Of a stretch of 36,002 nt of DNA, positions 5,246 through 33,267 are shown one piece after another. Origin of the DNA: an uncultured Candidatus Saccharibacteria bacterium (lineage in GTDB: Bacteria > Patescibacteriota > WWE3 > 2-01-FULL-39-13); contig CAZDNW010000012.1 in assembly GCA_964506905.1 (NCBI GenBank), positions 1 to 36,002 on the forward strand. The letters run 5' to 3'. The translations under genes and the position numbers were made by a program. Each line of letters opens with the position of its first letter. Within the stretch, counting starts at the first letter, position 1. A model generated the notes under the pieces. The model was not told the DNA's origin. It did not search any database and saw nothing but the letters and a program-made list of their open reading frames with translations.

Positions 5246-5295
5246 GAGTATCTTATAGTTAGTGGTAGTTATTTAACTACTTGTCCTTATTACTT

Positions 5296-8200
5296 ATGAA
5301 AAAAATCCCAATGTTTAAATTACTAAATTACATTGCAATATTGTCAATGTTAATTCAAACTTTTTTGCCTATATTTTATGTTTATCCTTCCAATATTTAT
5401 GCACAACAAGATGATTCAGTGGTGTTATTAGAAGAATCCAATTTTGATGATTCAAATGATAAAGATGTCGATTCTACGTTAAATAAAAATCAAGAGCAAA
5501 AGGAGACTGAAAATAATAACGATAATGAAGATACAAATGATAATGATAAGGAAGATAATAAAGGCAATGATATTACTATAAAAGATAGTGACGATATAGA
5601 AAAACCTTCGGATAAAGAAGTTAATGAAGAAATTCTAGATGAATCAAATAATGACATTGAAGATACTAAGATAATAGAAGATGATGATAATGAATCAACT
5701 CCTAATGTTGATGAAACCAATGATTCCTTTATTGATGGCACCGATGAAGTGATGACAGATGAGGAATCTGATGTTACAAATGACAATAAATCACTGGATG
5801 CAGATCTTGCTAATAAAGATAATCAAACAGAAAAAGAGAGTACGGATGATGAGGATAATAAAGACACGAAGTCTAATTCAAATGAAAGCGATGAAGAAGC
5901 CAATGAGGAAACACAGATAACATACGGTAAATGGGAAAAGAAAGAAGATAATAAATACAGAATTTATGTCGAACCGCAAAAGGAATATAAGTTTGAATTT
6001 CTAGATGATGAGAAAGTTCCTACAATAAAATTTAAAGACATAGATGAAGATAATAAAGAACAAGATAGATATATTGATGTAGAAATAATTGAATTGTCAA
6101 AAAAGCAACAAGAAGCTCTTAATTCTGTAGACGATAATGCATATGATATTACTTCGGGAATGGATAATGGGACTTTTGAATACGAATTGGTTTTGCCGTT
6201 ATCAGAATCTGTAGATGAAAATGTTGTATCAGTAAATTATGTCGAAGATAAAGATACATTAGAAAAGGTTGTTAAGTCACAGGATAAAAAAGAAATCAAT
6301 AAAGTAAATGAAGATAATGTGGAAGTCTCTAACGATCTAGTTAGCATAAAAGATTTAGATCACTTCACAATATTTTATGTAAGCGCAACTGCATCAGGTA
6401 ATGTTTGTGTTATAAGTGGAACGACATACAATAACTGTTATCCAACAATACAAGAAGCTATAAATAATGCTTCTGATGGAGATACAATAGAGATTGCTCC
6501 GGATACATATACAGAAAATTTAATTGTAAATAAAGAATTAACTTTAGTTGGTATGGGAGCTAAAATTAATGATGTAACAGTTAGAACAAACACAAATGGA
6601 TCACAATCGTCTCCTGCATATGGAGTAGAAATAAAGTCTGACAATGTAACCATTAAAAATATAAGATTTCAATCACGATTGGGATATGGGTTTCATTTTA
6701 AAGTTTCTAATGTTAATAATTTTACAATAGAAGATGTTAAGCTAACAAACAAAAAGAAAAATAAAACTGTTAGAGGTTTAGATCTTAATAGTGTTGAAAA
6801 TGTTTTAATTAAAAATGTAACTGTTAAAAATTATAGGGTTCATGGTATAGGTGTTGTCTCGGTTTGTGGAAATAATGATATAACAAGTAAAGATATTATA
6901 TTTGAAAATGTGGTAGTCAAAAACACTAAATCACAAAGTGGATATGCTGGCGCAGGCATAGCGTTTTATACGCAAGCTGGTCCAAGCTGTAGTCCAAATC
7001 AAGGTGCAGATATTACAGGTGTAAAATTTGTTGGAGATAATTATTTAACGGATAACGAAATTGGAATTACATTGCAGTCAGATTTAGATTTAATCTCTAA
7101 TTCTCTATTGCAAATATGTTTATCAAACCCAAGTGGTCCAGCTTGTGTAAATGCCATTTCTGGATTGCCGACATTAAATCCAAATTATGGTGTTTATGGA
7201 CCCAATGGCGAAAAACTAGATTTACATAACATGACAATCCAAACATTAGGCAGTAGTGGGAGAATATTTCCATCAATTAGTATTCTTAATTTAGTTAAAT
7301 CTGATGTGGATGCAACCGAAGTTAAATTTGATGGTAAAGATGGCATAGGTGCAGATATGCAAACTGCAAATGAAATAGAAGATACGATTTGGCATGATTG
7401 TAAATATTCACCATATCCTCATGGATTTTGTAATGCTATAGAAAATTTAGTAAGTACTGAAAATTTTGGAAGTGTTGATTATACAGATTGGTCATTTAAG
7501 ATAAAAGGTCATAAATACAATTATATTTATTCAGGGCAACAAGGTCAGCCAACTCATCACCCAATATCTGATTGGGATATAACTGTATGTGAGTACGAAA
7601 ATGGTGATGTTATTCAAGGTACTTGTGTTACTAAATCTACAGATAATAGTGGATATTATGAGTTTGGGTATGATGATCTTGGAGTAATGCTTGGAAAAGT
7701 ATACAAAATTTTTGAAGAACCTGGTAGAACTGACTATACCTATATGCAACCAGAATCATATATAGTTGATTTTACTTCTTCAAATCCTGTTTATTATACA
7801 GAAGATAATTTAATTGAAAACGGAGATTTTGAAACTCCTAAATTATCTACAAGTTGGACAACATATCCAGATGGATATACTGGGCTAGGGTGGACACCTG
7901 CGTGGGTATCTACCAACCTAAGTGATCAAGAAAAAGATGGATATCGAAGACCAATGCCTCCAAGAGTTGAAATTCAAAAGGTTTATGATGGTGATAATCA
8001 ATATGTAGAATTAGATGGTGATTGGGGAACCTCACAAAACAATTATGTTAACGGTGAAAACGCAAATATATATTTGTATCAAATGTTTCCGACTTGTAAT
8101 GGAGTAAAATATAATTTATCGTTTGACTGGTCTCCACGACCACACCATGATGATAATCAATTAAAGGTAACTGTAACCGATGTGTATAACAATAATATTT

Positions 8201-11200
8201 CGTATGAAGATACATTCTTGGATAGTGGGGATAGTAGTATAAATTGGACACCTATAACAGCATCTTTCGTTTCAAATACCTCATTAGTAAAAATAACTTT
8301 TCAAGAAATGGGCAATGGCGATTCGTATGGTGCTTTAATAGATAATGTATCTGTATATCAAGATAGTGGTGAAAATAATAAATGTCAGTATTCAGAAGAT
8401 TCAGAATTTAATTTTTATAACAGAGTTAATAATGATGATGATAATTTAGTACCAATTTTAGTTGCACCAAAACAAACTGGTTACAATGAAGATAATGGTG
8501 ATTCATATGAAACACCACACTATCCTGATGAAAATGAAATTGCTTGTACTGGTGGAGTTACAAATGTAAATGAAGTTTCTGTACATTGGTATTTACTTGA
8601 TGAAAATGGTAATCAAGTGAATATCCCTAACTTGAAATATTTAAGGCAATTCACAACGCCGGGTTCTTCTACATGGAGAGGTCATGAAGTTTACACAACT
8701 CCTTATACAAATTATAGAACCTTTGGTGGAAATCCAGGTCATCCTGGAACATATGGCTCTAGAGTAAGAGCTTGGGTTGATTCCAATAATAATAATCAAA
8801 TAGATTTAGGTGAAGCTGTATCTGAATGGAGTAATGAATGTTCAATAACATACGAATTACCACCAGTTTGTGGAAACGAAATAGTTGAAACCGGTGAAGA
8901 ATGTGATGGTACCAGTGGAGTAGGTGAAGGTGAATTTTGTACATCTCAATGTAAATTAATCCCGGTTTACGACGGAATGAATTCATGTCCAGATGGTACT
9001 GTTGAGGTTCCAACTGGTACACAATTTACTTTGTCAAGTAAAACGGCAAATGAAGTTTCGCATAATTTTGAAAGTGGTAAAAGGTATTTATTAAAAGCAA
9101 GTGGAACCTATTCTTATGCAAATACGGAAGGTAGAAAAGCAGATGCTGCATATGGCACAACAGATAATTTTGCAAATTCTAGATCAGATATAGGTATATG
9201 GGGAACTAATAAAGGTGTTACTTCAATAATTGGTGATCTTGGTAGAGGTATGGGAGTAATAATGTGGGATGATGACCAAAATATAAATTCCAACCATGTA
9301 TATACCAAGTATTTTAATCCTCAAGCAGATGTGTTAGGTAGATTTGTAATTAGCGATTGGTATGGTGATTGGTATGGTAGTGGTTGCAATAATCAATCTT
9401 GCTTAAGTGATAATAACGGATCATTAACACTTTCTGTAAATGAATGTGCTGAGGTTTTAACACCAGTAAAACCATACTGTGACGAAACAAAAATATTTGC
9501 AAGATTGGTTGATAGTACAGAATATGGAATTAGTACAGATTCAGATTGGAATACAGATGTAGATGGCAAAATATTTTACGGTGATAAAGTTGTTAATGTA
9601 GGTGAGTGGTTTGAACTAACACCTACAACAAACAATAGAGATGAAGGTGCTGTATTATCTTATGACGGAAATAAATTATCAATAAACTTATTGGAATTTA
9701 AAGATAATGATAAGTTTCAAAGATTTAAAGGTAAAATTGAATTTTATAAGACTGCGGTAGATAATATAGAAGAAGGAACAGGTGATTATGCACTTGAAAC
9801 CTGTAACGGTTGTTATCCAGATTCTTATAATCAAGATTCATTAAAGACAGTTTCGTTTGACTTTGGTGTAACAAATGCAAATGACCAAATAAATGTAAGT
9901 TTACATCATCTAGGTTGTGCATTAGAAGCGTGTACAAATGATTTTGCGGTAAACAATGATGGTTATATATATAAGATTAATCTACAAAATGGTGATGAAC
10001 AAATAATAGATGAGCTGGAATTCGGCACATCAGCAGCTGCATCTCAACCAGGCAAAGGAAATGTTTATTATATAGAACGATATAATACATCAGGTAAAAA
10101 AGGGTTAAGATTAGCTTATTATGATATTAATGCTAGAGTAAATGTAGTAGTAGGAAACACAGGCATTAATGGTGTAATAGATAAATTAGCATTTAACGAA
10201 GATGGTGTTTTGTATGCGATGAGTTCAAACTCTGTTTTATATACAGTTGATATTACAACAGGGCAGGCAACAAAACTAGGCAAAGTATTAGGAATTACAA
10301 AACCAGGTGGAGATTTATCATTTGATAATAAAGGTGATATGTATGTTCATGTAAAGGGAGGAAATCTTTATAAGGTAAATCTATATACATTAAATGCGGA
10401 AGTAGTATCAGATACTGATATTGAATCAACTGGAATGGTATTTAAAGACAAATTTTACGCTACAGATGATAATGAGAGTTTATTTGATTTCGACTATAAT
10501 GGTTCGGTTAATATAATAAGTACCTCAACAAGCAATATAAATGACTTAGCAAGTTGCCCTGTTAAAGTTTTAAAATCTAATGTAACTGTTTGTAAGGTAG
10601 ATACAAAAGACAATTACCTAGAAGGTTGGAATGTGCAACTATTAAGAGACGAAGTGCAAAAAGATATAAGTGTACCAGTTCAAGGCGGGGCAAGTGTGCA
10701 TTCTGCATATTTACCAAAAGGCAATTATGTATTAAGCGCACATGGCACATATGAATATAGGGGAAACACAGGACTTTTAACTGATCCAAATTATTCTCAA
10801 AGATTAAAAGGTGATAATTATAGTGGTAGTGAAGAATTTTTCCCATGGATAAATGTAAATGATTTTAATCCTCCTCATGAAGGTTGGTTAGGGGTTATGG
10901 TAAATAACATGCCAACTAATTGGAGTAATTATTTATCAAGCAATCACACATATTATTTAGGGTATACAAATTATTCAGGTGAATTTAGATTCAATATATA
11001 CGATAATGTATATTCTGATAATAAAAACAGTACTATAGCCGTTGATATCTATACTGGTTATGCTGGTACAACAGGTAAAAATGGTTGTGTTACATTTGAA
11101 AATGTTCCTTATGGAGATTATGAGGTATCAGAAACTTTAAGGGATGGTTATATAAATGTAACTGGGTTAGGAAATGTAGAAGTAAACGACCTAGAAGAAA

Positions 11201-14200
11201 CATTTACTATTGAAAATAGAGATATAAGGCCAGCTAAAGTATTGGCAGCAAAAATAGTTTGTGATGATGAAAAATATTTACCAAATTGGGGTGCAAATAG
11301 AGGTGGTATCCCAATTAACGAAAATACAATTGATAACTTTTTTAATGCAGATCCTGATAGAAAAAACCATTGTGAAGTTGTAAAAGATTGGAAATTTCAA
11401 TGGGGATATGCAGGTACAGTTAGTTTTCCAGCTGATGATTTTGTTGGTGAAGCACAAGGTTGGAATACATTTGGACCTGCAGTAAATGGTGAATACGCAG
11501 TAGCAGAAGTTCCATTAGAAGAAGAGGGTATTAACTTAATTTGGGTAAGAGAAGTATTGCAGGATAACTACATACCATTTTCTTTCGGATTAAACGGCAA
11601 AACAAACAAAGACGATTATAGTGCTGAATTTTATTGTAATACAGATGGTGCAAATTATGACAATAGAGATGGAATAGGCAAAATAAGAAGACATGATGAA
11701 CCGATTATGAATAATAAGACATACTATTGCGTTGGATTTAATGCAATTCAAAAGTCAATAATAGAAGGTTATAAATTTAATGACTTAAATCATAATGGAG
11801 TTTGGGATAAAAACGAACCTGCAATGTCTGGGTGGCAAATTTATATTGATGAAAATAATAACGGTAATTTGGATGCAGGAGAAAAAGTTGTAGATACAGA
11901 TAAAAACGGATATTACAGTTTTGTCTTACCATCAAATAACACATATGTAGTGAGAGAGTTAAATCAAAACGGTTGGGAACAAACTAGTCCAGATACAGGT
12001 AGTTGCGAATTTGAAGATGTCGAAGATAGAGTTCATTATGAATGCAATTTTGGAAATGTAAAACTTGGATTGATGAAGGGCTATAAATTTAATGATTTGA
12101 ACCATGATAGTGCTTGGGGTGAAGATGAGCCCGCAATGTCAGGTTGGGAAATTTACATAGATTCTAATAATAATGGCATATTTGATGATGGGGAATTAAA
12201 CGGTATTACAGATGAAAACGGTTATTATGAATTTACAAATCTTTATCCAGGTACTTACAAAGTTTGTGAAGTTTTACAACCAGGGTGGAATCAATCATTT
12301 CCTGAATTTACAGATGGATGTTATTCAATAACATTAACAGGTGATGTAAATGAGACTTACGATACAGATTATAATTTTGGAAATTATGCTGGGGAGCCAC
12401 TTATGAAAGTTGCTGAATATAATGATGCATCTATAATGGCATTAGAATCTGCAAGTCCAATTACATTTACAATAAAACTTAGGTTTGATGAGATAGAAGA
12501 ATACGAAGCACTTGCTGATAATGTTAAGATTACTCACTTATTGCCCGAAGGTGTTACATATATACCTGGATCATATACAATAGAATCCTCTACAGGTAGA
12601 GATATGTCATCTATATCAGAAGCTGTTTATCACTCACCGGGTACTTGGGATTTAACACCGGCAGGTCCTTATGTAGAAGGTGAAGAAATCACATTAACAT
12701 TAAAAGCAAATGTTGATACAAGTGTAGTAGAGCCAGGGGTATTAAAAGATATCACATGGGCAGAATCAACACCTATTGATGATAATAATGAAGTAATATT
12801 AGCAGAAGCAGATCCAGTAGGAGGTTATGTCGCAGAAAAATTTGTTGGTACAGATGTGGAATTTACTAGTGAACCTGATTCACCAAAAGCAAATGCAGAA
12901 GTAGAAGAAAAAGAAGAAGTAAAAGAAGTTACCGAAGAGGGCCAAGTATTAGGAGCATCAACAACAGCGCTGCCAGCAACCGGTGCAAGTGCAAACTTAC
13001 TTGCTTTTGCAATGTTAATTTTAACAATAGGTGCAGCAAGTTTGCTTTATGGTATGAAAAAACAACAAGATTCAGTGGTTGTAGATAAAAGAAAAGGTAA
13101 GACTTCCGCAAAAAAGACCAAGAGAGTTGTCAAATCCTCAAAATCTAAAAAGGTAAATAAAATAGTGGCAGTGTTGATTGCGTCTTTAACATTAACATCT
13201 TTATTATTAATGGGAATTCAAACGCCGGCTTATGCTGCCGATGAATATCCTGTAATGGTTAGGGTTGAACAACCAAAGACGCCAACAAACGAGCCATTTA
13301 AATTAACATTTGTTGCGGTGGATACAGCTAATAGAGAAGTTCAAGTCACATGTTTTGTAAAAAACCCTGATGGAACAGAATCTCAATTTGATGTAGTAAA
13401 AACCTTAAAGGCAGGAGGAAACACTGATTCTTGTGATGCTAACACATCTGTTTTAAACAAAAACGGAACATATGAATTTTGGGTAACTGCTGAAGCGTTA
13501 GAAAACGAAAGTGTGAGTGGTGCTTCTGCAACAAGTGAAAGAGTAAAGGTTGATTATTCAACTTCAAACCCAGATGAACCAAAAGATTTCGAAGTAGACA
13601 AGAAAAATAATTGTGAGTATAAGATTAAATTTAAAACTGCTGATGATGGTGAAACCTCATATGTTGAAGTGTATAGATCAGACGATACAACATTCTCAGT
13701 AGGTGAAAGTACTAGAGTAAAAACAATATCAATAAACCCGAACGAGAAGTATGAGTATACTGACACACTTGCGGGTTCACAATGCGGACATACACAATAC
13801 TACGCAATAAGAGCATTTAATAGTGCTGGAAATCCATCAGATGTTGTAGCTCAAGAAAAAGTTGTGATAGTTGAAGAGGTAAAAGAATCTGAAGGTGAAA
13901 CAGAAGAAACGGGACAAACACAAGAGACAGAGGCAATAATTGTTCCTACAGAAGCTAGCACTGTAGCACAAGGCGGTGTAGAAGGTGCAGAAGTTGTTGC
14001 AGAAGGCAGCATTGCAACAGATGGAAATGGGGAAGTAAAAGGTGCCGCAACAGAAAACGAAGACCAAACAAATAATACCAATACAGAAAACACAGACAAT
14101 CAAAATTCTGATGATACTGGTGGAATAAAATCATTATTTTCGTTTAGAAATATAATAATAGGATTAATTGCATTGTTATTATTAGGTGGAGCTATTTTCT

Positions 14201-14211
14201 TAATACTTTAG
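5296..14211 (+). CDS. giant secreted surface protein (~2,970 codons) with an internal LPATG sorting signal
   Basis: Single uninterrupted frame. ATG 5296 gives MKKIPMFKLLNYIAILSMLIQTF... signal peptide (track start TTG 5281). Regions in order: D/E/N-rich acidic low-complexity, beta-helix, jelly-roll, Cys-rich repeat, propeller-like repeats, two SdrD-B-type repeats, LPATG plus TM, second signal peptide, FN3-like module, terminal TM. Sortase gene lies immediately downstream. Confidence 0.85.
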   Translation: MKKIPMFKLLNYIAILSMLIQTFLPIFYVYPSNIYAQQDDSVVLLEESNFDDSNDKDVDSTLNKNQEQKETENNNDNEDTNDNDKEDNKGNDITIKDSDDIEKPSDKEVNEEILDESNNDIEDTKIIEDDDNESTPNVDETNDSFIDGTDEVMTDEESDVTNDNKSLDADLANKDNQTEKESTDDEDNKDTKSNSNESDEEANEETQITYGKWEKKEDNKYRIYVEPQKEYKFEFLDDEKVPTIKFKDIDEDNKEQDRYIDVEIIELSKKQQEALNSVDDNAYDITSGMDNGTFEYELVLPLSESVDENVVSVNYVEDKDTLEKVVKSQDKKEINKVNEDNVEVSNDLVSIKDLDHFTIFYVSATASGNVCVISGTTYNNCYPTIQEAINNASDGDTIEIAPDTYTENLIVNKELTLVGMGAKINDVTVRTNTNGSQSSPAYGVEIKSDNVTIKNIRFQSRLGYGFHFKVSNVNNFTIEDVKLTNKKKNKTVRGLDLNSVENVLIKNVTVKNYRVHGIGVVSVCGNNDITSKDIIFENVVVKNTKSQSGYAGAGIAFYTQAGPSCSPNQGADITGVKFVGDNYLTDNEIGITLQSDLDLISNSLLQICLSNPSGPACVNAISGLPTLNPNYGVYGPNGEKLDLHNMTIQTLGSSGRIFPSISILNLVKSDVDATEVKFDGKDGIGADMQTANEIEDTIWHDCKYSPYPHGFCNAIENLVSTENFGSVDYTDWSFKIKGHKYNYIYSGQQGQPTHHPISDWDITVCEYENGDVIQGTCVTKSTDNSGYYEFGYDDLGVMLGKVYKIFEEPGRTDYTYMQPESYIVDFTSSNPVYYTEDNLIENGDFETPKLSTSWTTYPDGYTGLGWTPAWVSTNLSDQEKDGYRRPMPPRVEIQKVYDGDNQYVELDGDWGTSQNNYVNGENANIYLYQMFPTCNGVKYNLSFDWSPRPHHDDNQLKVTVTDVYNNNISYEDTFLDSGDSSINWTPITASFVSNTSLVKITFQEMGNGDSYGALIDNVSVYQDSGENNKCQYSEDSEFNFYNRVNNDDDNLVPILVAPKQTGYNEDNGDSYETPHYPDENEIACTGGVTNVNEVSVHWYLLDENGNQVNIPNLKYLRQFTTPGSSTWRGHEVYTTPYTNYRTFGGNPGHPGTYGSRVRAWVDSNNNNQIDLGEAVSEWSNECSITYELPPVCGNEIVETGEECDGTSGVGEGEFCTSQCKLIPVYDGMNSCPDGTVEVPTGTQFTLSSKTANEVSHNFESGKRYLLKASGTYSYANTEGRKADAAYGTTDNFANSRSDIGIWGTNKGVTSIIGDLGRGMGVIMWDDDQNINSNHVYTKYFNPQADVLGRFVISDWYGDWYGSGCNNQSCLSDNNGSLTLSVNECAEVLTPVKPYCDETKIFARLVDSTEYGISTDSDWNTDVDGKIFYGDKVVNVGEWFELTPTTNNRDEGAVLSYDGNKLSINLLEFKDNDKFQRFKGKIEFYKTAVDNIEEGTGDYALETCNGCYPDSYNQDSLKTVSFDFGVTNANDQINVSLHHLGCALEACTNDFAVNNDGYIYKINLQNGDEQIIDELEFGTSAAASQPGKGNVYYIERYNTSGKKGLRLAYYDINARVNVVVGNTGINGVIDKLAFNEDGVLYAMSSNSVLYTVDITTGQATKLGKVLGITKPGGDLSFDNKGDMYVHVKGGNLYKVNLYTLNAEVVSDTDIESTGMVFKDKFYATDDNESLFDFDYNGSVNIISTSTSNINDLASCPVKVLKSNVTVCKVDTKDNYLEGWNVQLLRDEVQKDISVPVQGGASVHSAYLPKGNYVLSAHGTYEYRGNTGLLTDPNYSQRLKGDNYSGSEEFFPWINVNDFNPPHEGWLGVMVNNMPTNWSNYLSSNHTYYLGYTNYSGEFRFNIYDNVYSDNKNSTIAVDIYTGYAGTTGKNGCVTFENVPYGDYEVSETLRDGYINVTGLGNVEVNDLEETFTIENRDIRPAKVLAAKIVCDDEKYLPNWGANRGGIPINENTIDNFFNADPDRKNHCEVVKDWKFQWGYAGTVSFPADDFVGEAQGWNTFGPAVNGEYAVAEVPLEEEGINLIWVREVLQDNYIPFSFGLNGKTNKDDYSAEFYCNTDGANYDNRDGIGKIRRHDEPIMNNKTYYCVGFNAIQKSIIEGYKFNDLNHNGVWDKNEPAMSGWQIYIDENNNGNLDAGEKVVDTDKNGYYSFVLPSNNTYVVRELNQNGWEQTSPDTGSCEFEDVEDRVHYECNFGNVKLGLMKGYKFNDLNHDSAWGEDEPAMSGWEIYIDSNNNGIFDDGELNGITDENGYYEFTNLYPGTYKVCEVLQPGWNQSFPEFTDGCYSITLTGDVNETYDTDYNFGNYAGEPLMKVAEYNDASIMALESASPITFTIKLRFDEIEEYEALADNVKITHLLPEGVTYIPGSYTIESSTGRDMSSISEAVYHSPGTWDLTPAGPYVEGEEITLTLKANVDTSVVEPGVLKDITWAESTPIDDNNEVILAEADPVGGYVAEKFVGTDVEFTSEPDSPKANAEVEEKEEVKEVTEEGQVLGASTTALPATGASANLLAFAMLILTIGAASLLYGMKKQQDSVVVDKRKGKTSAKKTKRVVKSSKSKKVNKIVAVLIASLTLTSLLLMGIQTPAYAADEYPVMVRVEQPKTPTNEPFKLTFVAVDTANREVQVTCFVKNPDGTESQFDVVKTLKAGGNTDSCDANTSVLNKNGTYEFWVTAEALENESVSGASATSERVKVDYSTSNPDEPKDFEVDKKNNCEYKIKFKTADDGETSYVEVYRSDDTTFSVGESTRVKTISINPNEKYEYTDTLAGSQCGHTQYYAIRAFNSAGNPSDVVAQEKVVIVEEVKESEGETEETGQTQETEAIIVPTEASTVAQGGVEGAEVVAEGSIATDGNGEVKGAATENEDQTNNTNTENTDNQNSDDTGGIKSLFSFRNIIIGLIALLLLGGAIFLIL
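6430..7250 (+). other. right-handed parallel beta-helix (pectin-lyase-fold) region of the giant protein
   Basis: NNCYPTIQEAINNASDGDTIEIAPDTYTENLIVNKELTLVGMG, followed by repeated ~22-aa N/V/I-rich turns (IKNIRF, IEDVKLTN, IKNVTVKN, FENVVVKN). Confidence 0.6.
7816..8362 (+). other. CBM / DUF642-like jelly-roll domain of the giant protein
   Basis: ENGDFETPKL...GWTP...VEIQKVYDGDNQYVELDG...YNLSFDWSPRP...ALIDNVSVYQ, the pattern typical of DUF642/CBM4_9-type lectin domains. Confidence 0.5.
8869..8960 (+). other. Cys-rich repeat (Myxococcus-type CGNGxxExGEECD motif)
   Basis: CGNEIVETGEECDGTSGVGEGEFCTSQCKL read in frame. Confidence 0.55.
11767..12390 (+). repeat. two tandem SdrD-B / Cna-B-type repeats (protein-level repeat)
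   Basis: GYKFNDLNHNGVWDKNEPAMSGWQIYIDENNNGNLDAGE...DKNGYYSF and GYKFNDLNHDSAWGEDEPAMSGWEIYIDSNNNGIFDDGE...DENGYYEF. The DNA copies have diverged. Confidence 0.65.
12970..13053 (+). other. cell-wall sorting signal: LPATG plus hydrophobic helix
   Basis: ctg cca gca acc ggt (12970-12984) encodes LPATG. It is followed by ASANLLAFAMLILTIGAASLLYG and then the basic MKKQQ. Confidence 0.85.
13054..13236 (+). other. second signal-peptide-like segment inside the giant ORF (possible internal start ATG 13054)
   Basis: MKKQQDSVVVDKRKGKTSAKKTKRVVKSSKSKKVNK (basic n-region), then IVAVLIASLTLTSLLLMGI (h-region), then QTPAYA/ADE (AxA site after 13236). Confidence 0.55.
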
Positions 14212-14261: not shown

Positions 14262-14930
14262 ATGAAAATTAATAACAAATACCTAATATTTTTTGGAATT
14301 CTGCTAATTTTAACTGCATTAAGCTTATTGTTTGTGCAATTTTCACCGATTATAAGAGATGAAATTAAGTATAAAAAAACAAAAAATTTGGTTGAAAGCA
14401 TTGATGAAATTGTTATAAAACCAGAAGAAAACTCTAAAATTCCTAAAGAAAATATTGAAAAGAAAAAAAAGAGGCTTGTTATAGTAGCTAGAGATAAAGA
14501 CTTTTCTATTGTAATACCTAAAATTGGAGCAAATGCTAAAGTAATTGAAAATATAGACCCGTATAACTCATCTGAATATCAAAAAGCTCTTACAAAAGGG
14601 GTGGCACATGCAAAAGGCACTGCTTTACCGAATGAAAACGGAAATACATTTATTTTCGCTCATTCATCTGATAATTTTTATAATGCTAACAGATATAATT
14701 CAATCTTTTATTTATTAAATAAGATGGAAAAAGGTGATGACATTTATATTGTGTATAACGGAAAAGTTATTCCATATAAAGTAAAAGAAACAAAGATAGT
14801 TGATAAAGATAAAATTGAGTATCTAAAAAATAGCGAAAGGAAAAAAGATAATGAATTAACTCTTATGACTTGCTGGCCCCCAGGTACTACATACAAAAGA
14901 TTAATTGTTATAGCAGAAAAAAACAAATAG
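14262..14930 (+). CDS. sortase (transpeptidase), N-terminal membrane anchor
   Basis: TM helix YLIFFGILLILTALSLLFVQF, catalytic His in FIFAHSS, TLMTCWPPG (TLxTC Cys) and a downstream conserved Arg (YKRLIV). Adjacent to the LPATG substrate. Confidence 0.9.
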   Translation: MKINNKYLIFFGILLILTALSLLFVQFSPIIRDEIKYKKTKNLVESIDEIVIKPEENSKIPKENIEKKKKRLVIVARDKDFSIVIPKIGANAKVIENIDPYNSSEYQKALTKGVAHAKGTALPNENGNTFIFAHSSDNFYNANRYNSIFYLLNKMEKGDDIYIVYNGKVIPYKVKETKIVDKDKIEYLKNSERKKDNELTLMTCWPPGTTYKRLIVIAEKNK

Positions 14931-18916: not shown

Positions 18917-19140
18917 TTTTTGTTAATGGACTTAAATTACCATTGTAACTAGATATATGTTAGCAGATTAAAGCAATCTGATAAACATATTATTTTAGCT
19001 TAGATCTAAGTTCCTAGCTCTAAGTAAACTTTAGCACATTTAAATAATAATAGGTTGTAGTTCGCAGAAAGTTATATAAAAAATATGATTTTCTGCGGAT
19101 TACAATCTCTACGCGACATCCCATCTTATAGGAGGTTAAA

Positions 19141-19365
19141 ATGACTGCTTACGATAAGCATGATGCCGCAAAAGATACTGGCAGTAGTGTCCGTGAAGTG
19201 GAACGGGCTTGGCATACTGCTCGTGACGATTCCGGTCGTGGCGATTACAATGACAAGTTGCGGGACCCTTCTTACAAAGACAATGCCTCTCAAGCCTTGA
19301 GCCAGATCTTGCGCGATTCGGGCATCACCGATATCCAGTCGCTTCCCGAAGGTTTCGGAGACTAA
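19141..19365 (+). CDS. 74-aa highly hydrophilic protein of unknown function in a G+C-rich mini-cassette
   Basis: GGAGG at 19131-19135 lies 5 nt before the ATG. There are 74 sense codons. By hand count 116 of 225 nt are G/C, against ~20-33% in neighbours. Codons are foreign to this window (cgt, ggc, ccc, gcc). A strong terminator follows. Confidence 0.55.
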   Translation: MTAYDKHDAAKDTGSSVREVERAWHTARDDSGRGDYNDKLRDPSYKDNASQALSQILRDSGITDIQSLPEGFGD

Positions 19366-19406
19366 TCAACAACATATCAGTATATTCTGATGACGAGCTA
19401 GGTAAT

Positions 19407-19462
19407 GGGTGAGATACATTTCTTCGCGTAGAGACCGCAATGTATCTCGCCCTTACTTTTTT
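19407..19462 (+). terminator. intrinsic terminator with 14-bp stem and 18-nt loop
   Basis: GGGTGAGATACATT (19407-19420) pairs with AATGTATCTCGCCC (19439-19452), with one G-U pair, then TTACTTTTTT. Confidence 0.75.
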
Positions 19463-19486
19463 GTTTATTTAGATTAAAATTTACTT

Positions 19487-19867
19487 ATGATGGATTCAAA
19501 TAAAAAAGATAACAAAACTAAACCAATTTTAAATACATTACTATCAGAAGAACAATTAGACGATGTTCTTAAAAGTAAAAATTTATCTATTGCAAATTAT
19601 GAGGGATTAAACGAGATTATATATTTGATTAACCTTGTTGAAAAGATTGCTAAGGCATACAACGATGAGTTACCAGAAAATGATGCAATTGAAGCAGGAT
19701 TAAAAGGATTAAGATTTGGTTTAGCAAAATATAGAGATAAGGTCTTATCTGCTGGTGATGAAGTTAAGATATCAGCATATTTGAGTTGGTTTATTAAAAC
19801 GGCAATAGAATTTAAAATTGGAATAGAAAATGAAGATACTAAGGCATGGGCTAATATGAATGCATAA
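19487..19867 (+). CDS. hypothetical protein with sigma-70 region 2 (2.1-2.3)-like segment only
   Basis: LINLVEKIAKAYNDELPENDAIEAGLKGLRFGLAKYRD....KISAYLSWFIKTAIE parallels LRLVVSIAKKY......DLIQEGNIGLMKAVDKFD...KFSTYATWWIRQAI. There is no region 3 or 4. The similarity was judged by eye only. Confidence 0.5.
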   Translation: MMDSNKKDNKTKPILNTLLSEEQLDDVLKSKNLSIANYEGLNEIIYLINLVEKIAKAYNDELPENDAIEAGLKGLRFGLAKYRDKVLSAGDEVKISAYLSWFIKTAIEFKIGIENEDTKAWANMNA

Positions 19868-22606: not shown

Positions 22607-23086
22607 ATGAGCGGCAAAAAAAACGATGACAAAAAAATAATGATGACAAAAGAAGGCTATAAAAAACTAAAAGCCGAATATGACGATTTAGTAAATGTTC
22701 AAAGACCAGCTATTATTGCTGATATTCAATCTGCGAGAGAAATGGGAGATTTAAGGGAAAATGGATATTATTCTGCATCAAGAGAAAAACAATCTTTCAT
22801 TGAGGGAAGAATTAGAGAATTAGAAGAATTACTTAAAAATGCAGAAGTTGTGGAGGTTGAAAAGGATAGCGGTGTAGTAGGGTTAGGTTGTAAAGTAAAG
22901 GTAAAGGTGGTTGATAAAGAAATCGAATACCATATTGTTAGTCCAGAAGAAGTCGATTTTGAAAATAATAAAATTTCGCATGAATCGCCACTAGGAAAGT
23001 CATTGCTTGGTAAAAAAGTTGGCGATGATGTTGAATTTGATGCACCAGTAGGTAAAGTTACCTATAAAATTATTGAGATCAGTTAG
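22607..23086 (+). CDS. greA: transcription elongation factor GreA
   Basis: MTKEGYKKLKAEYDDL...AREMGDLRENGYYSASREKQ...RIRELEELLKNAEVV, plus the C-terminal ISHESPLGKSLLGKKVGD. The start could instead be ATG 22640. Confidence 0.9.
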   Translation: MSGKKNDDKKIMMTKEGYKKLKAEYDDLVNVQRPAIIADIQSAREMGDLRENGYYSASREKQSFIEGRIRELEELLKNAEVVEVEKDSGVVGLGCKVKVKVVDKEIEYHIVSPEEVDFENNKISHESPLGKSLLGKKVGDDVEFDAPVGKVTYKIIEIS

Positions 23087-23159
23087 TATTAGTGATTAGT
23101 TTACGAGATCACTATACTAATTTAAACTAATTTGTGTTTTGATCTCATCTATTCTCATT

Positions 23160-23627
23160 ATGGCAAAACAAAAAAAGTATTTTTTAACACCAGAAGGCTA
23201 CAAAAAACTAAAAGAAGAATTACATCGGTTGCGAGAAATTGATATGGTTAATGTTGCAGAAAAAATAAAAGCAGCAAGAGAGTTAGATGCTGATATTTTG
23301 GAAAATAATGTTTACGATGCGGCTGTAGAAGAGCAAGTTTTAATGGAAAATAGAATAGCTGAAATTGAAGATATATTATCAAATGCGAAGGTCGTAGAAA
23401 ATTCTGATAAAAGTAAAGTGGATTTAGGTGATGTGGTTGTAGTTAAAACTGAAGATGATACACATGAATTTAAATTAGTAGGAAGTGAAGAAGCAGATCC
23501 TGAAAAGAAACATATTTCACATGAGTCACCATTAGGTAAAGCCTTGTTAGGGGCAAAGGTGGGGGATACGGTTGAAGTTGAAACGCCAGCTACTAAGGTT
23601 AGATATACAATAGTTGAAATCAAATAA
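23160..23627 (+). CDS. second, more divergent GreA-family paralog
   Basis: LTPEGYKKLKEEL...ARELDADILENNVYDAAVEEQ...ISHESPLGKALLGAKVGD. ATG 23160 is preferred over the track's TTG 23139. Confidence 0.85.
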   Translation: MAKQKKYFLTPEGYKKLKEELHRLREIDMVNVAEKIKAARELDADILENNVYDAAVEEQVLMENRIAEIEDILSNAKVVENSDKSKVDLGDVVVVKTEDDTHEFKLVGSEEADPEKKHISHESPLGKALLGAKVGDTVEVETPATKVRYTIVEIK

Positions 23628-32634: not shown

Positions 32635-33267
32635 ATGAATAAATCATATGATGATTTGCTTGATGAATTAGTACAGCAAGGTATATTAGAAAAAAACACA
32701 AGATTATATTATGCATTCGAAAAATTTGACAGAGCTGATTTTGTTAGAGAAGAAGATAGGCAAAATGCATATATGAATACCCCTTTATATATTGGTTACG
32801 GTCAGACTGTTTCACAGCCATATACCATAGCATTTATGTTAAAACTTTTAGAAGTTCAACCTGGAAATAAAGTTTTGGAGGTTGGATATGGTTCTGGATG
32901 GCAAACAGCAATTTTAACTGATTTGGTTCAACCAAATGGTGAAGTTCATGCTACTGAACTAGTTCCTGAAATAAAAAAGTTTGGCGAAAAGAACTTAAAA
33001 AAGTATAATTTAGACTTAAATGGGAATTTGTTTTTATATCAAGCTAAAAAGGGTGATTTAGGTGTTAAAAAAGAATGCCCATTTGATAGAATTATTAGTG
33101 GAGCTTCAGCATTAAGTTTGCCACAACAGTTAATAGATCAACTTAAATCAGGTGGAATAATGGTTTTGCCAGTAAAAAACTCAATTTTAAAGGTTGTTAA
33201 AACAAATGAGAAAGATTTTACAGTTGAAGAATATCCTGGGTTTGTATTTGTTCCTTTAATCACCTAA
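32635..33267 (+). CDS. pcm: protein-L-isoaspartate O-methyltransferase
   Basis: GYGQTVSQPYTIAFMLKLLEVQPGNKVLEVGYGSGWQTAILTDLV (SAM-binding motif I), with the usual PGFVFVPL ending. Confidence 0.9.
   Translation: MNKSYDDLLDELVQQGILEKNTRLYYAFEKFDRADFVREEDRQNAYMNTPLYIGYGQTVSQPYTIAFMLKLLEVQPGNKVLEVGYGSGWQTAILTDLVQPNGEVHATELVPEIKKFGEKNLKKYNLDLNGNLFLYQAKKGDLGVKKECPFDRIISGASALSLPQQLIDQLKSGGIMVLPVKNSILKVVKTNEKDFTVEEYPGFVFVPLIT

Follow-up and report, generated by a model that had tools for sequence, protein, structure and literature searches.

Few bacterial messages are known whose two ends pair with each other, the cases being hbs and some type I toxin mRNAs. In the hbs mRNA of Bacillus subtilis, a 14-nt segment just past a 5′ hairpin has a full complement beside the terminator, with which it pairs (PMC5737220). 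Single and compensatory mutations demonstrated this pairing in vivo and showed that it limits cleavage of the leader by RNase Y; the great stability of the message is due in part to it (Braun, Durand and Condon, 2017; PMC5737220). Here, we analyzed a 36,002-nt stretch of DNA (the window; contig CAZDNW010000012.1 of assembly GCA_964506905.1, forward strand) from an uncultured Candidatus Saccharibacteria bacterium of the WWE3 lineage, within the candidate phyla radiation (CPR), a phylum-level group whose members cannot so far be cultured on their own. The gene under study is a G+C-rich gene for a 74-aa protein, the predicted mRNA of which carries complementary segments in its 5′ and 3′ untranslated regions (UTRs). 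Comparison of nine lineages shows that the two predicted segments have co-evolved, most likely so that both ends of the mRNA can pair. We consider it likely that this is a vertically inherited, separately terminated (and probably monocistronic) gene of a CPR (WWE3/Katanobacteria-like) bacterium with a paired-end mRNA built for persistence and strong translation.

The likeness to hbs lies in a message for a small protein, here probably monocistronic, with a strong Shine–Dalgarno (SD) sequence, a structured 5′ UTR and a fully complementary segment of ~11–14 nt just past the 5′ hairpin, whose 3′ UTR partner lies by the terminator. As in hbs, complementary 5′ and 3′ UTR segments are found in the predicted transcript, and they are upheld by compensatory change in nine lineages. 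The two systems differ in geometry: here the 3′ partner is placed in the terminator loop, giving a pseudoknot, whereas in hbs it lies just upstream of the terminator. In addition, the pairing at this locus is bipartite (helices Ha and Hb), with 4–7 skipped nt that belong to the 5′ hairpin, and it competes with that hairpin. The coding region with its conserved G+C-rich composition, the CPR host and the unrelated protein are further differences, and the pairing described here is predicted from sequence.

The hok (fbi/tac) and Helicobacter aapA1/aapA3 mRNAs are likewise short messages whose ends pair, with conservation by covariation, and whose early 5′ hairpins give way once the 3′ end has been made. 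In those messages, however, the interaction hides the SD, a toxic hydrophobic peptide stays untranslated until 3′ processing, and an antisense RNA is involved. At the present locus, by contrast, the pairing leaves the SD free, the gene product is an acidic, hydrophilic protein and there is no sign of an antisense partner. A type I toxin–antitoxin mRNA was rejected as the identity of the locus, as the protein has no hydrophobic segment that could be a toxin (grand average of hydropathy −1.14, isoelectric point 4.8) and the pairing ends at 19116, with the SD at 19131–19135.

5′-terminal stabilising stem-loops, such as those of the Escherichia coli ompA leader and the B. subtilis aprE/ermC-type stabilisers, offer a further comparison. 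The likeness is the combination of a strong SD with a stable hairpin placed at the mRNA's 5′ end or close to it, in a message for an abundant protein; the difference is that the hairpin here need not be 5′-terminal and, given its 23–26 bp, could instead plausibly serve as an RNase III substrate. The locus stands out for the unusual clarity of the natural compensatory changes and the predicted use of a terminator loop as a docking site.

Complementary 5′ and 3′ segments co-vary in nine lineages

The initial annotation of this DNA, made from the letters alone, had noted an 11-nt complementarity between the two UTRs, extended by TGCGG and CCGCA. The coordinates proved exact (Table 1): 19094–19116 and 19424–19439 form 16 pairs, and TCTCTACGCGA has exactly one reverse-complement copy, where 0.11 would be expected by chance.

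Table 1. Coordinates of the features of the 74-aa gene and its partner gene in the window
Feature	Position	Strand	Basis or remark
5′ leader hairpin, ~26 pairs, 5 G·U wobbles	19052–19108	+	minimum free energy (MFE) fold; structure conserved in orthologs
Ha, 5′ half, TGCGG	19094–19098	+	in 3′ arm of 5′ hairpin; complements CCGCA of 3′ loop
Skipped segment ATTACAA, 7 nt	19099–19105	+	lower stem of 5′ hairpin; overlaps most of TACAAT, 19101–19106
Hb, 5′ half, TCTCTACGCGA	19106–19116	+	directly 3′ of hairpin, 15 nt upstream of SD; exact complement of 19424–19434
SD, GGAGG, 5 nt before ATG	19131–19135	+	GGAGG or near variant kept in orthologs
Coding sequence, 74-aa acidic hydrophilic protein, G+C-rich codons	19141–19365	+	homologs, dN/dS, codon usage
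3′ UTR hairpin, presumed intrinsic terminator	19407–19452	+	13-bp stem 19407–19419/19440–19452, one U·G, 20-nt loop
Loop segment TCGCGTAGAGA+CCGCA	19424–19439	+	contiguous 3′ partner of Hb and Ha
T-rich tail TTACTTTTTTGTTTATTT	19453–19470	+	read from sequence
Partner gene, 126 aa, resembles stand-alone sigma-70 region 2	19487–19867	+	ortholog profile vs PDB

Each orthologous Hb segment (8–13 nt) is complementary to the 3′ loop of its own lineage, and a skipped segment of 4–7 nt is present in all nine (Table 2). Compensated changes occur in at least six Hb columns (3, 7, 8, 9, 10 and 11) and also in Ha, where L015 (GCGAAT/ATTCGC) and L035 (GCGGG/CCCGC) have changed on both sides. All of the ~140 long-range pairs checked by script over the nine lineages are standard, a single one being G·U; two apparent mispairs in L054 reflected the choice of register and, by reading, vanish when GCGG is taken as Ha. 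The pairings of L054, L015 and L057 (+207, +213 and +288) were found once the 3′ search was widened.

Table 2. Paired 5′ and 3′ segments in nine lineages (skipped or unpaired letters in lower case)
Lineage	5′ side	3′ side	Remark
Window	TGCGG-attacaa-TCTCTACGCGA	TCGCGTAGAGA-CCGCA	3′ side unbroken
L017	TGCGG-ataatg-ATCTCTACACA	TGTGTAGAGAT-CCGCA	
L013	GCGG-actatg-ATCTCTACACAA	TTGTGTAGAGAT-c-CCGC	
L012	TGCGG-actatg-ATTTCTATACAAA	TTTGTATAGAAAT-CCGCA	
L001	GCGG-atgaag-ATTTCTGCTTG	CAAGCAGAAAT-t-CCGC	
L035	TGCGGG-caaag-ATTTCTGC	GCAGAAAT-CCCGCA	
L015	GCGAAT-aatgaa-CTCTACACA	TGTGTAGAG-ATTCGC	+213; GCGG part itself compensated
L054	GCGG-gtcga-GAGTTCTGCT	AGCAGAACTC-CCGC	51% protein identity; +207
L057	AGCGGG-caaaa-AAATTCGCGC	GCGCGAATTT-g-CTCGCT	47% protein identity; +288; one G·U in Ha

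A global RNAduplex calculation of the whole 5′ UTR against the whole 3′ UTR gave long spurious duplexes and was replaced by the longest exact complement compared with shuffles. This complement is 11–14 nt long in five lineages, and in each of them at most 1.3% of the shuffles gave one as long. The run formed with the lineage's own 3′ partner averages 10.6 consecutive pairs, vs 5.8 with the partners of other lineages. In L016, a different 8-nt pair (GGGTTGTC/GACAACCC) occupies the same topological places. The covariation strongly supports pairing of the two UTRs at the RNA level, one of the two explanations that had been offered for the complementarity, the other being terminal inverted repeats of an inserted element. 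A control with 24 flank pairs of distant family members gave only three matches at p ≤ 0.02. Pairing is thus a trait of the WWE3-type clade only, as it is absent from the wider family, which has only the N-terminal domain in common.

The 3′ segment is displayed in a hairpin loop in the folds of the window, L017, L013, L012, L001, L035 and L016 and, by reading, apparently in L054. Equivalent 3′ stems of different sequence are present in the orthologs, and the stem co-varies; the MAFFT alignment of these hairpins was off by one in two sequences, so that its counts of stem pairs are too low and the per-sequence folds are the better evidence. A terminator with a 14-bp stem had been described at this place in the window. 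The hairpin and T-rich tail are indeed present, but the stem is 13 bp (one U·G) plus a few outer pairs. It was missed by a consensus terminator scan because its loop exceeds the 8-nt limit of that scan. In window-type lineages the 3′ hairpin is followed by a T-rich tail, and in L016, and by reading L054, a separate strong terminator comes after the loop-displaying hairpin.

The 5′ hairpin is conserved as a sense-strand structure

The whole unit folds well (z = −5.9). A hairpin had been placed at 19063–19097, and its arms, CGCAGAAA at 19063 and TTTCTGCG at 19090, are present with 19 nt between them, but the structure is larger than proposed, with 26 pairs over 19052–19108. A 5′ hairpin of 23–26 bp was found in all lineages examined. 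RNAalifold analysis of nine lineages gave 17 consensus pairs, with 90.8% of the alignment cells paired, vs 42–51% when the partner column was slid by 1–3, and both sides have changed in 10 of the pairs. The covariation score was 0.523 (slid controls, ≤0.19), a value reached by none of 500 shuffles. Two alignment columns hold conserved U·G/G·U wobbles, and in 12 of 12 lineages the more stable fold is that of the + strand rather than the − strand. Because of these wobbles and the strand asymmetry, the hairpin appears to act as sense-strand RNA with transcription beginning upstream of it; the asymmetry implies that transcription would run through 19052–19108.

This bears on the promoter of the gene. 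The initial annotation had taken TACAAT (19101–19106) for a promoter box; the hexamer exists, but it forms part of the conserved sense-strand RNA hairpin, in the 3′ arm, and transcription starting just past it would lose most of the 5′ pairing segment, so that its use as a promoter is unsupported. A predicted promoter inside the hairpin (TTCGCA-17-TATGAT, 19061–19089, with the RNA starting at GCGG) was also rejected, its hexamers not being conserved in orthologs by reading.

Two further repeats lie upstream of the hairpin. At 18997–19012 there is a near-perfect 16-bp palindrome, AGCTTAGATCTAAGTT, the counterpart of which is AGCTTAGRTCTAAGCT in L013, L014 and L017 and has a GC centre in L011. 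An interrupted inverted repeat (ATATATGTTAGCAGATT ... AATCTGATAAACATAT) spans 18953–18990, and in L017 and L013 its arms differ but remain complementary. They may serve the divergent 165-aa and 74-aa genes as operators, or be additional leader structure.

Pairing of the mRNA ends would require at least two conformations

In the arrangement that we propose, a long sense-strand 5′ hairpin would be followed by Hb (8–13 nt), with Ha (of GCGG type) lying 4–7 nt upstream of Hb, and Ha and Hb would together pair with one contiguous sequence shown in the large loop of the 3′ hairpin/terminator. By analogy with hbs, we infer that this end-to-end pairing stabilises the message: it would shield the leader and termini from ribonucleases, and the protected ends, together with a consensus SD left free 15 nt downstream, would let the message of an abundant protein persist and be translated heavily.

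The geometry constrains how such pairing could form. Ha is part of the 3′ arm of the 5′ hairpin, and its partner in the 3′ loop directly adjoins the 3′ stem arm, with no linker. Therefore, the full pairing of Ha and Hb (16 bp) is incompatible with a closed 5′ hairpin and probably with an intact terminator top. It follows by geometric reasoning that the transcript would have at least two conformations. The hairpin would form first, and end-to-end pairing would come once the 3′ loop has been made, or after cleavage of the hairpin, e.g. by RNase III. On the same reasoning, Hb alone (11–13 bp) would fit inside the 20-nt loop if it formed before closure of the stem. The two states leave room for a regulatory role, either in gating read-through into the next gene or as a processing step.

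Several observations weigh against this interpretation. No sigma-70-type promoter was found at a consistent position upstream of the hairpin in the window, L017, L013, L012 and others, and L052, an ortholog lineage, has no pairing. The long-range pairs contain one G·U in ~140, vs ~15% G·U in the 5′ hairpin, and inverted repeats acting at the DNA level would give the same result. The pairing is a pseudoknot, which is beyond RNAfold evaluation, and the global duplex calculation was uninformative. No specific RNA fold was found inside the coding region (mean z = −0.08 for MFE vs synonymous-codon permutations in nine orthologs), the gene has more G-ending codons, which simple translational selection would not predict, and stabilisation rests on analogy to hbs. 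As to the near-pure Watson–Crick character of the long-range pairs, it may arise because so short an intramolecular contact must be as stable as possible, or from a constraint at the DNA level.

A regulatory function of the same RNA pairing is possible, although we regard it as unlikely. Here, the leader would compete with the terminator or with the 5′ hairpin, and would thus set the ratio of termination to read-through into the sigma-region-2-like gene, or would time translation as in hok/aapA-type mRNAs. The next gene begins 35 nt past the 3′ stem in the window and ~30 nt past it in L013 and L017, which leaves little space for a promoter of its own. Moreover, the 5′ hairpin overlaps Ha and Hb, so alternative conformers must exist, and by geometric reasoning there is hardly steric room for a 16-bp helix in a 20-nt loop that a 13-bp stem closes, which means that something must open. 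Against this, L016 and, by reading, L054 have their separate strong terminator after the loop hairpin, and there the pairing need not touch termination at all; in addition, since the SD lies outside the pairing, there is no sign of direct translational repression as in hok/aapA.

It is improbable that the repeats act in the DNA, as an invertible switch bound by a recombinase or as sites for a regulator that loops the DNA. Such a role would fit the near-absence of G·U among the ~140 pairs, and the two copies do change together between lineages, as sites kept identical would. Nevertheless, one copy always carries an insertion of 4–7 nt, which the RNA hairpin explains, and the 3′ copy is invariably displayed in a hairpin loop; that hairpin is of the sense strand, its stem has a U·G pair and co-varies, and inversion would split the stem. 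The G·U pair in Ha of L057 also speaks for RNA. A single orientation was seen in all contigs with flanking sequence, including every contig with the partner gene (six lineages; more than 10 contigs of one species), and the window ORFs scanned yielded no recombinase; neither result fits an invertible switch.

The G+C-rich island is an old, vertically inherited gene

The window has the gene content of an ordinary bacterial chromosome (SecA, SerRS, a class II aminoacyl-tRNA synthetase, two copies of GreA, TGT, UppP, PyrD, PIMT, sortase and tRNA-Glu), and the 74-aa gene stands out from it by composition, as had been noted. The G+C content is 0.486 in 19095–19452, vs 0.312 for the whole window, which makes this segment the top of all 358-nt windows (z = 5.0; next best elsewhere, 0.419). 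In the 74-aa open reading frame (ORF), 116 of the 225 nt are G or C, the figure counted in the initial annotation, and G+C at third codon positions (GC3) is 0.51, compared with 0.17–0.25 in 22 neighbouring ORFs, which bears out the description of its codon choice as alien to the neighbours. Recoding of the same protein with background codons gave 39% G+C, vs 52% observed. Arg is encoded by CGN (mostly CGT) at a frequency of 0.89 (background, 0.15) and Ile by ATC at 0.62 (0.07), NNC codons make up 42% (17%), G-ending codons 52% (18%), and A-ending four-fold codons 0.17 (0.44). This shift is in part consistent with an abundant product, and the parallel increase in G-ending codons suggests an extra pressure toward an A-poor, G+C-rich message.

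The atypical G+C content and codon usage, together with the inverted repeats that flank the unit, had led to the proposal that the unit had recently been acquired by horizontal transfer or was a miniature mobile cassette bounded by terminal inverted repeats; we now consider this proposal very improbable. The same G+C-rich gene is conserved at the same position in relatives, and the recent-acquisition reading fails for this reason. The gene order in L013 (73-aa gene, 123-aa gene, Metallophos, TGT) is that of the window, and L017 has the upstream VanW and 165-aa genes as well as the downstream genes in common with it. In six lineages the small gene is followed by a gene of the 126-aa type; among them are WWE3 RIFCSPLOWO2_01_FULL_39_13, where its product is 35% identical to that of the window, and two distant ones, L052 and L054. 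Every relative having flanking sequence carries the small gene at the syntenic site, and position and neighbours are kept down to 47–51% protein identity.

The composition of the orthologs leads to the same conclusion. Gene G+C is 0.45–0.56 in eight orthologs, vs 0.27–0.40 in their flanks, and GC3 is 0.31–0.66, vs 0.19–0.35 in neighbouring long ORFs. Synonymous sites are saturated between these orthologs (synonymous differences, pS, 0.58–0.97; nonsynonymous differences, pN, 0.08–0.36), so a composition brought in by transfer would have decayed; as GC3 is still far above the host background, the composition of the island is maintained and is not a relic of transfer. On this evidence, a recently transferred genomic islet was rejected.

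Signs of mobility were also sought. The 11-mer repeat occurs once per strand, as a single pair, with no additional copies in the window; the window ORFs scanned included no transposase, integrase or invertase; tblastn detected no relatives in 50,697 phage records and 72,556 plasmid records; a PADLOC scan returned nothing; and no target-site duplication was seen when the flanks were read. With a single repeat pair in the window, and the gene present at the syntenic site in every relative with flanking sequence, a miniature mobile element with terminal inverted repeats was likewise rejected. We conclude that the island is an old, conserved, vertically inherited gene and not a new or mobile cassette. 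In an A+T-rich genome, a sharp G+C island with foreign-looking codons can thus turn out to be a long-established gene with a composition maintained by selection, which calls for caution in composition-based calls of horizontal transfer.

Members of the wider family in A+T-rich hosts are likewise G+C-rich, e.g. 0.55 vs 0.31–0.33. For L011, L012, L014, L015 and L016, many public contigs with the small gene are only 500–760 bp long and hold little beyond the gene and its UTRs; a possible cause is a coverage or assembly bias toward the G+C island in A+T-rich genomes.

The island encodes a conserved acidic protein

The ORF is a real gene under purifying selection. Six homologs at 68–82% identity were found in the initial search, and profile searches added distant full-length ones (47–64%); the closest named homolog is a hypothetical protein of candidate division WWE3. 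Among nine orthologs, 70 of 72 third codon positions are variable, compared with 29 second positions, and dN/dS is 0.07–0.2 across orthologs where computable. The GGAGG with its 5-nt spacer to the ATG lies where it had been reported.

A search of Rfam 15 at the gathering score returned only tRNAs in the window and likewise in 11 orthologous loci, and a threshold of E ≤ 10 gave no match for the 74-aa gene either. The least probable explanation, a structured non-coding RNA with an accidental ORF or, as a variant, a type I toxin–antitoxin-like locus, can draw on the frequent identity of G+C-rich islands in A+T-rich genomes with RNA genes, on the good fold of the unit and, for the variant, on 5′–3′ pairing typical of hok/aapA toxin mRNAs, but is countered by the lack of an Rfam match in these loci, by conservation with a period of three and the low dN/dS, by a coding part no more structured than synonymous-codon permutations and, again for the variant, by a hydrophilic, acidic product that is not a membrane peptide and a pairing that leaves the SD unsequestered.

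The protein had been described as belonging to no recognised family, and we found no match for it in Pfam, PHROG, NCBIfam, PADLOC or PDB sequence profiles. Profile searches nevertheless define a wider family of ~69 clusters at 50% identity, with hosts in CPR phyla (Saccharibacteria, Paceibacterota, Wolfebacteria), Actinomycetota, Bifidobacteriaceae and Acidobacteriota. Its members have only the N-terminal motif YxKxDAAKDTGxSxxEVxxAWHxARDD in common, which is followed by a variable low-complexity tail that often closes with a short motif of the GI..LFP or IFG type. AlphaFold2 gave a poor model with seven sequences (mean predicted local distance difference test score, pLDDT, 59.6) and a better one with 30 (pLDDT 74.6), in which residues 6–30 are predicted to form a helix-turn-helix (HTH; pLDDT 84–90). 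In a Foldseek comparison with the PDB, all matches had E ≥ 2 and none was significant, the weak list consisting mostly of HTH DNA-binding domains; hidden Markov model searches of the protein gave no HTH match. In the literature searched, no relevant report of a small CPR protein with high expression was found.

Some members of the family differ in context or architecture. A few are fused to a CFI-box-CTERM domain (L025 3001–3384, P0071; NF041770, E 5e-26; also P0055 and P0014). In L020, L021, L022, L025, L027, L028, L029 and L036, which belong to other CPR lineages, one or two conserved small proteins with motifs of the YW.D...Y(Y/L)IPKGMI type are encoded 200–1100 nt past the family gene, in place of the sigma-like gene, and five of these loci have a putative GNAT-type acetyltransferase nearby (by reading sequence). 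The conserved N-terminus with a variable tail bears a faint resemblance to the layout of precursor peptides.

A sigma-region-2-like gene lies downstream

The 126-aa product of the downstream gene is 52% identical to the corresponding neighbour in L013 (123 aa) and 35% identical to that in L001. When a profile of six partner orthologs was compared with the PDB, 52 of 53 matches were to region 2 of SigA/RpoD/RpoS, at marginal E values of 0.007–0.1. The profile aligns with sigma regions 2.1–2.3, including the signature YxxW(W/F)I(R/K)xAI (YLSWFIKTAIE). The protein has no Pfam match and is too short to contain region 3 or 4; therefore, it cannot be a complete sigma factor. Its likeness to sigma-70 is thus confined to the 2.1–2.3 signature, with the marginal E values and the missing regions 3 and 4 as differences.

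The sigma-region-2-like neighbour and the N-terminal HTH-like module hint weakly at a role in transcription for the 74-aa protein. More speculatively, and in our view doubtfully, the HTH-like 74-aa protein and the stand-alone sigma-region-2-like protein may form a new transcription-control module of WWE3-type CPR bacteria, the abundant component of which would be made from a hardened mRNA (leader/terminator-loop pseudoknot sealing the message, 5′ hairpin as a conformational gate, and a coding region that selection keeps G+C-rich and A-poor to evade the ribonucleases of an A+T-rich cell). The unannotated small-protein family (~70 clusters at 50% identity; CPR phyla, Actinomycetota and others) and its sigma-region-2-like partner are candidates for study.

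In a more distant lineage (L058 2600–3000 and L059 1440–1834), two G+C-rich ORFs (57–64% in a 42% locus) precede the partner gene. They encode small acidic proteins with the motifs QQARQDY and EHQARNDY, each with the ribosome-binding site GGAGGTGA, and may be diverged paralogs of the 74-aa family.

Other features of the window

The second most G+C-rich stretch of the window (41.9%) lies near 13736, in the 3′ part of a 2976-aa ORF (5281–14211, +) with a TTG start. A sortase gene (14262–14930, +) follows directly, and the product of the long ORF is presumably a giant sortase-anchored surface protein. A gene for protein-L-isoaspartate O-methyltransferase lies at 32635–33267 (+); the 74-aa protein contains many isoaspartate-prone sites, in which Gly/Ser comes after Asp/Asn, which may well be coincidence. 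Finally, 22607–23086 and 23139–23627 (+) hold a tandem pair of paralogs of the GreA/GreB family of transcript-cleavage factors.

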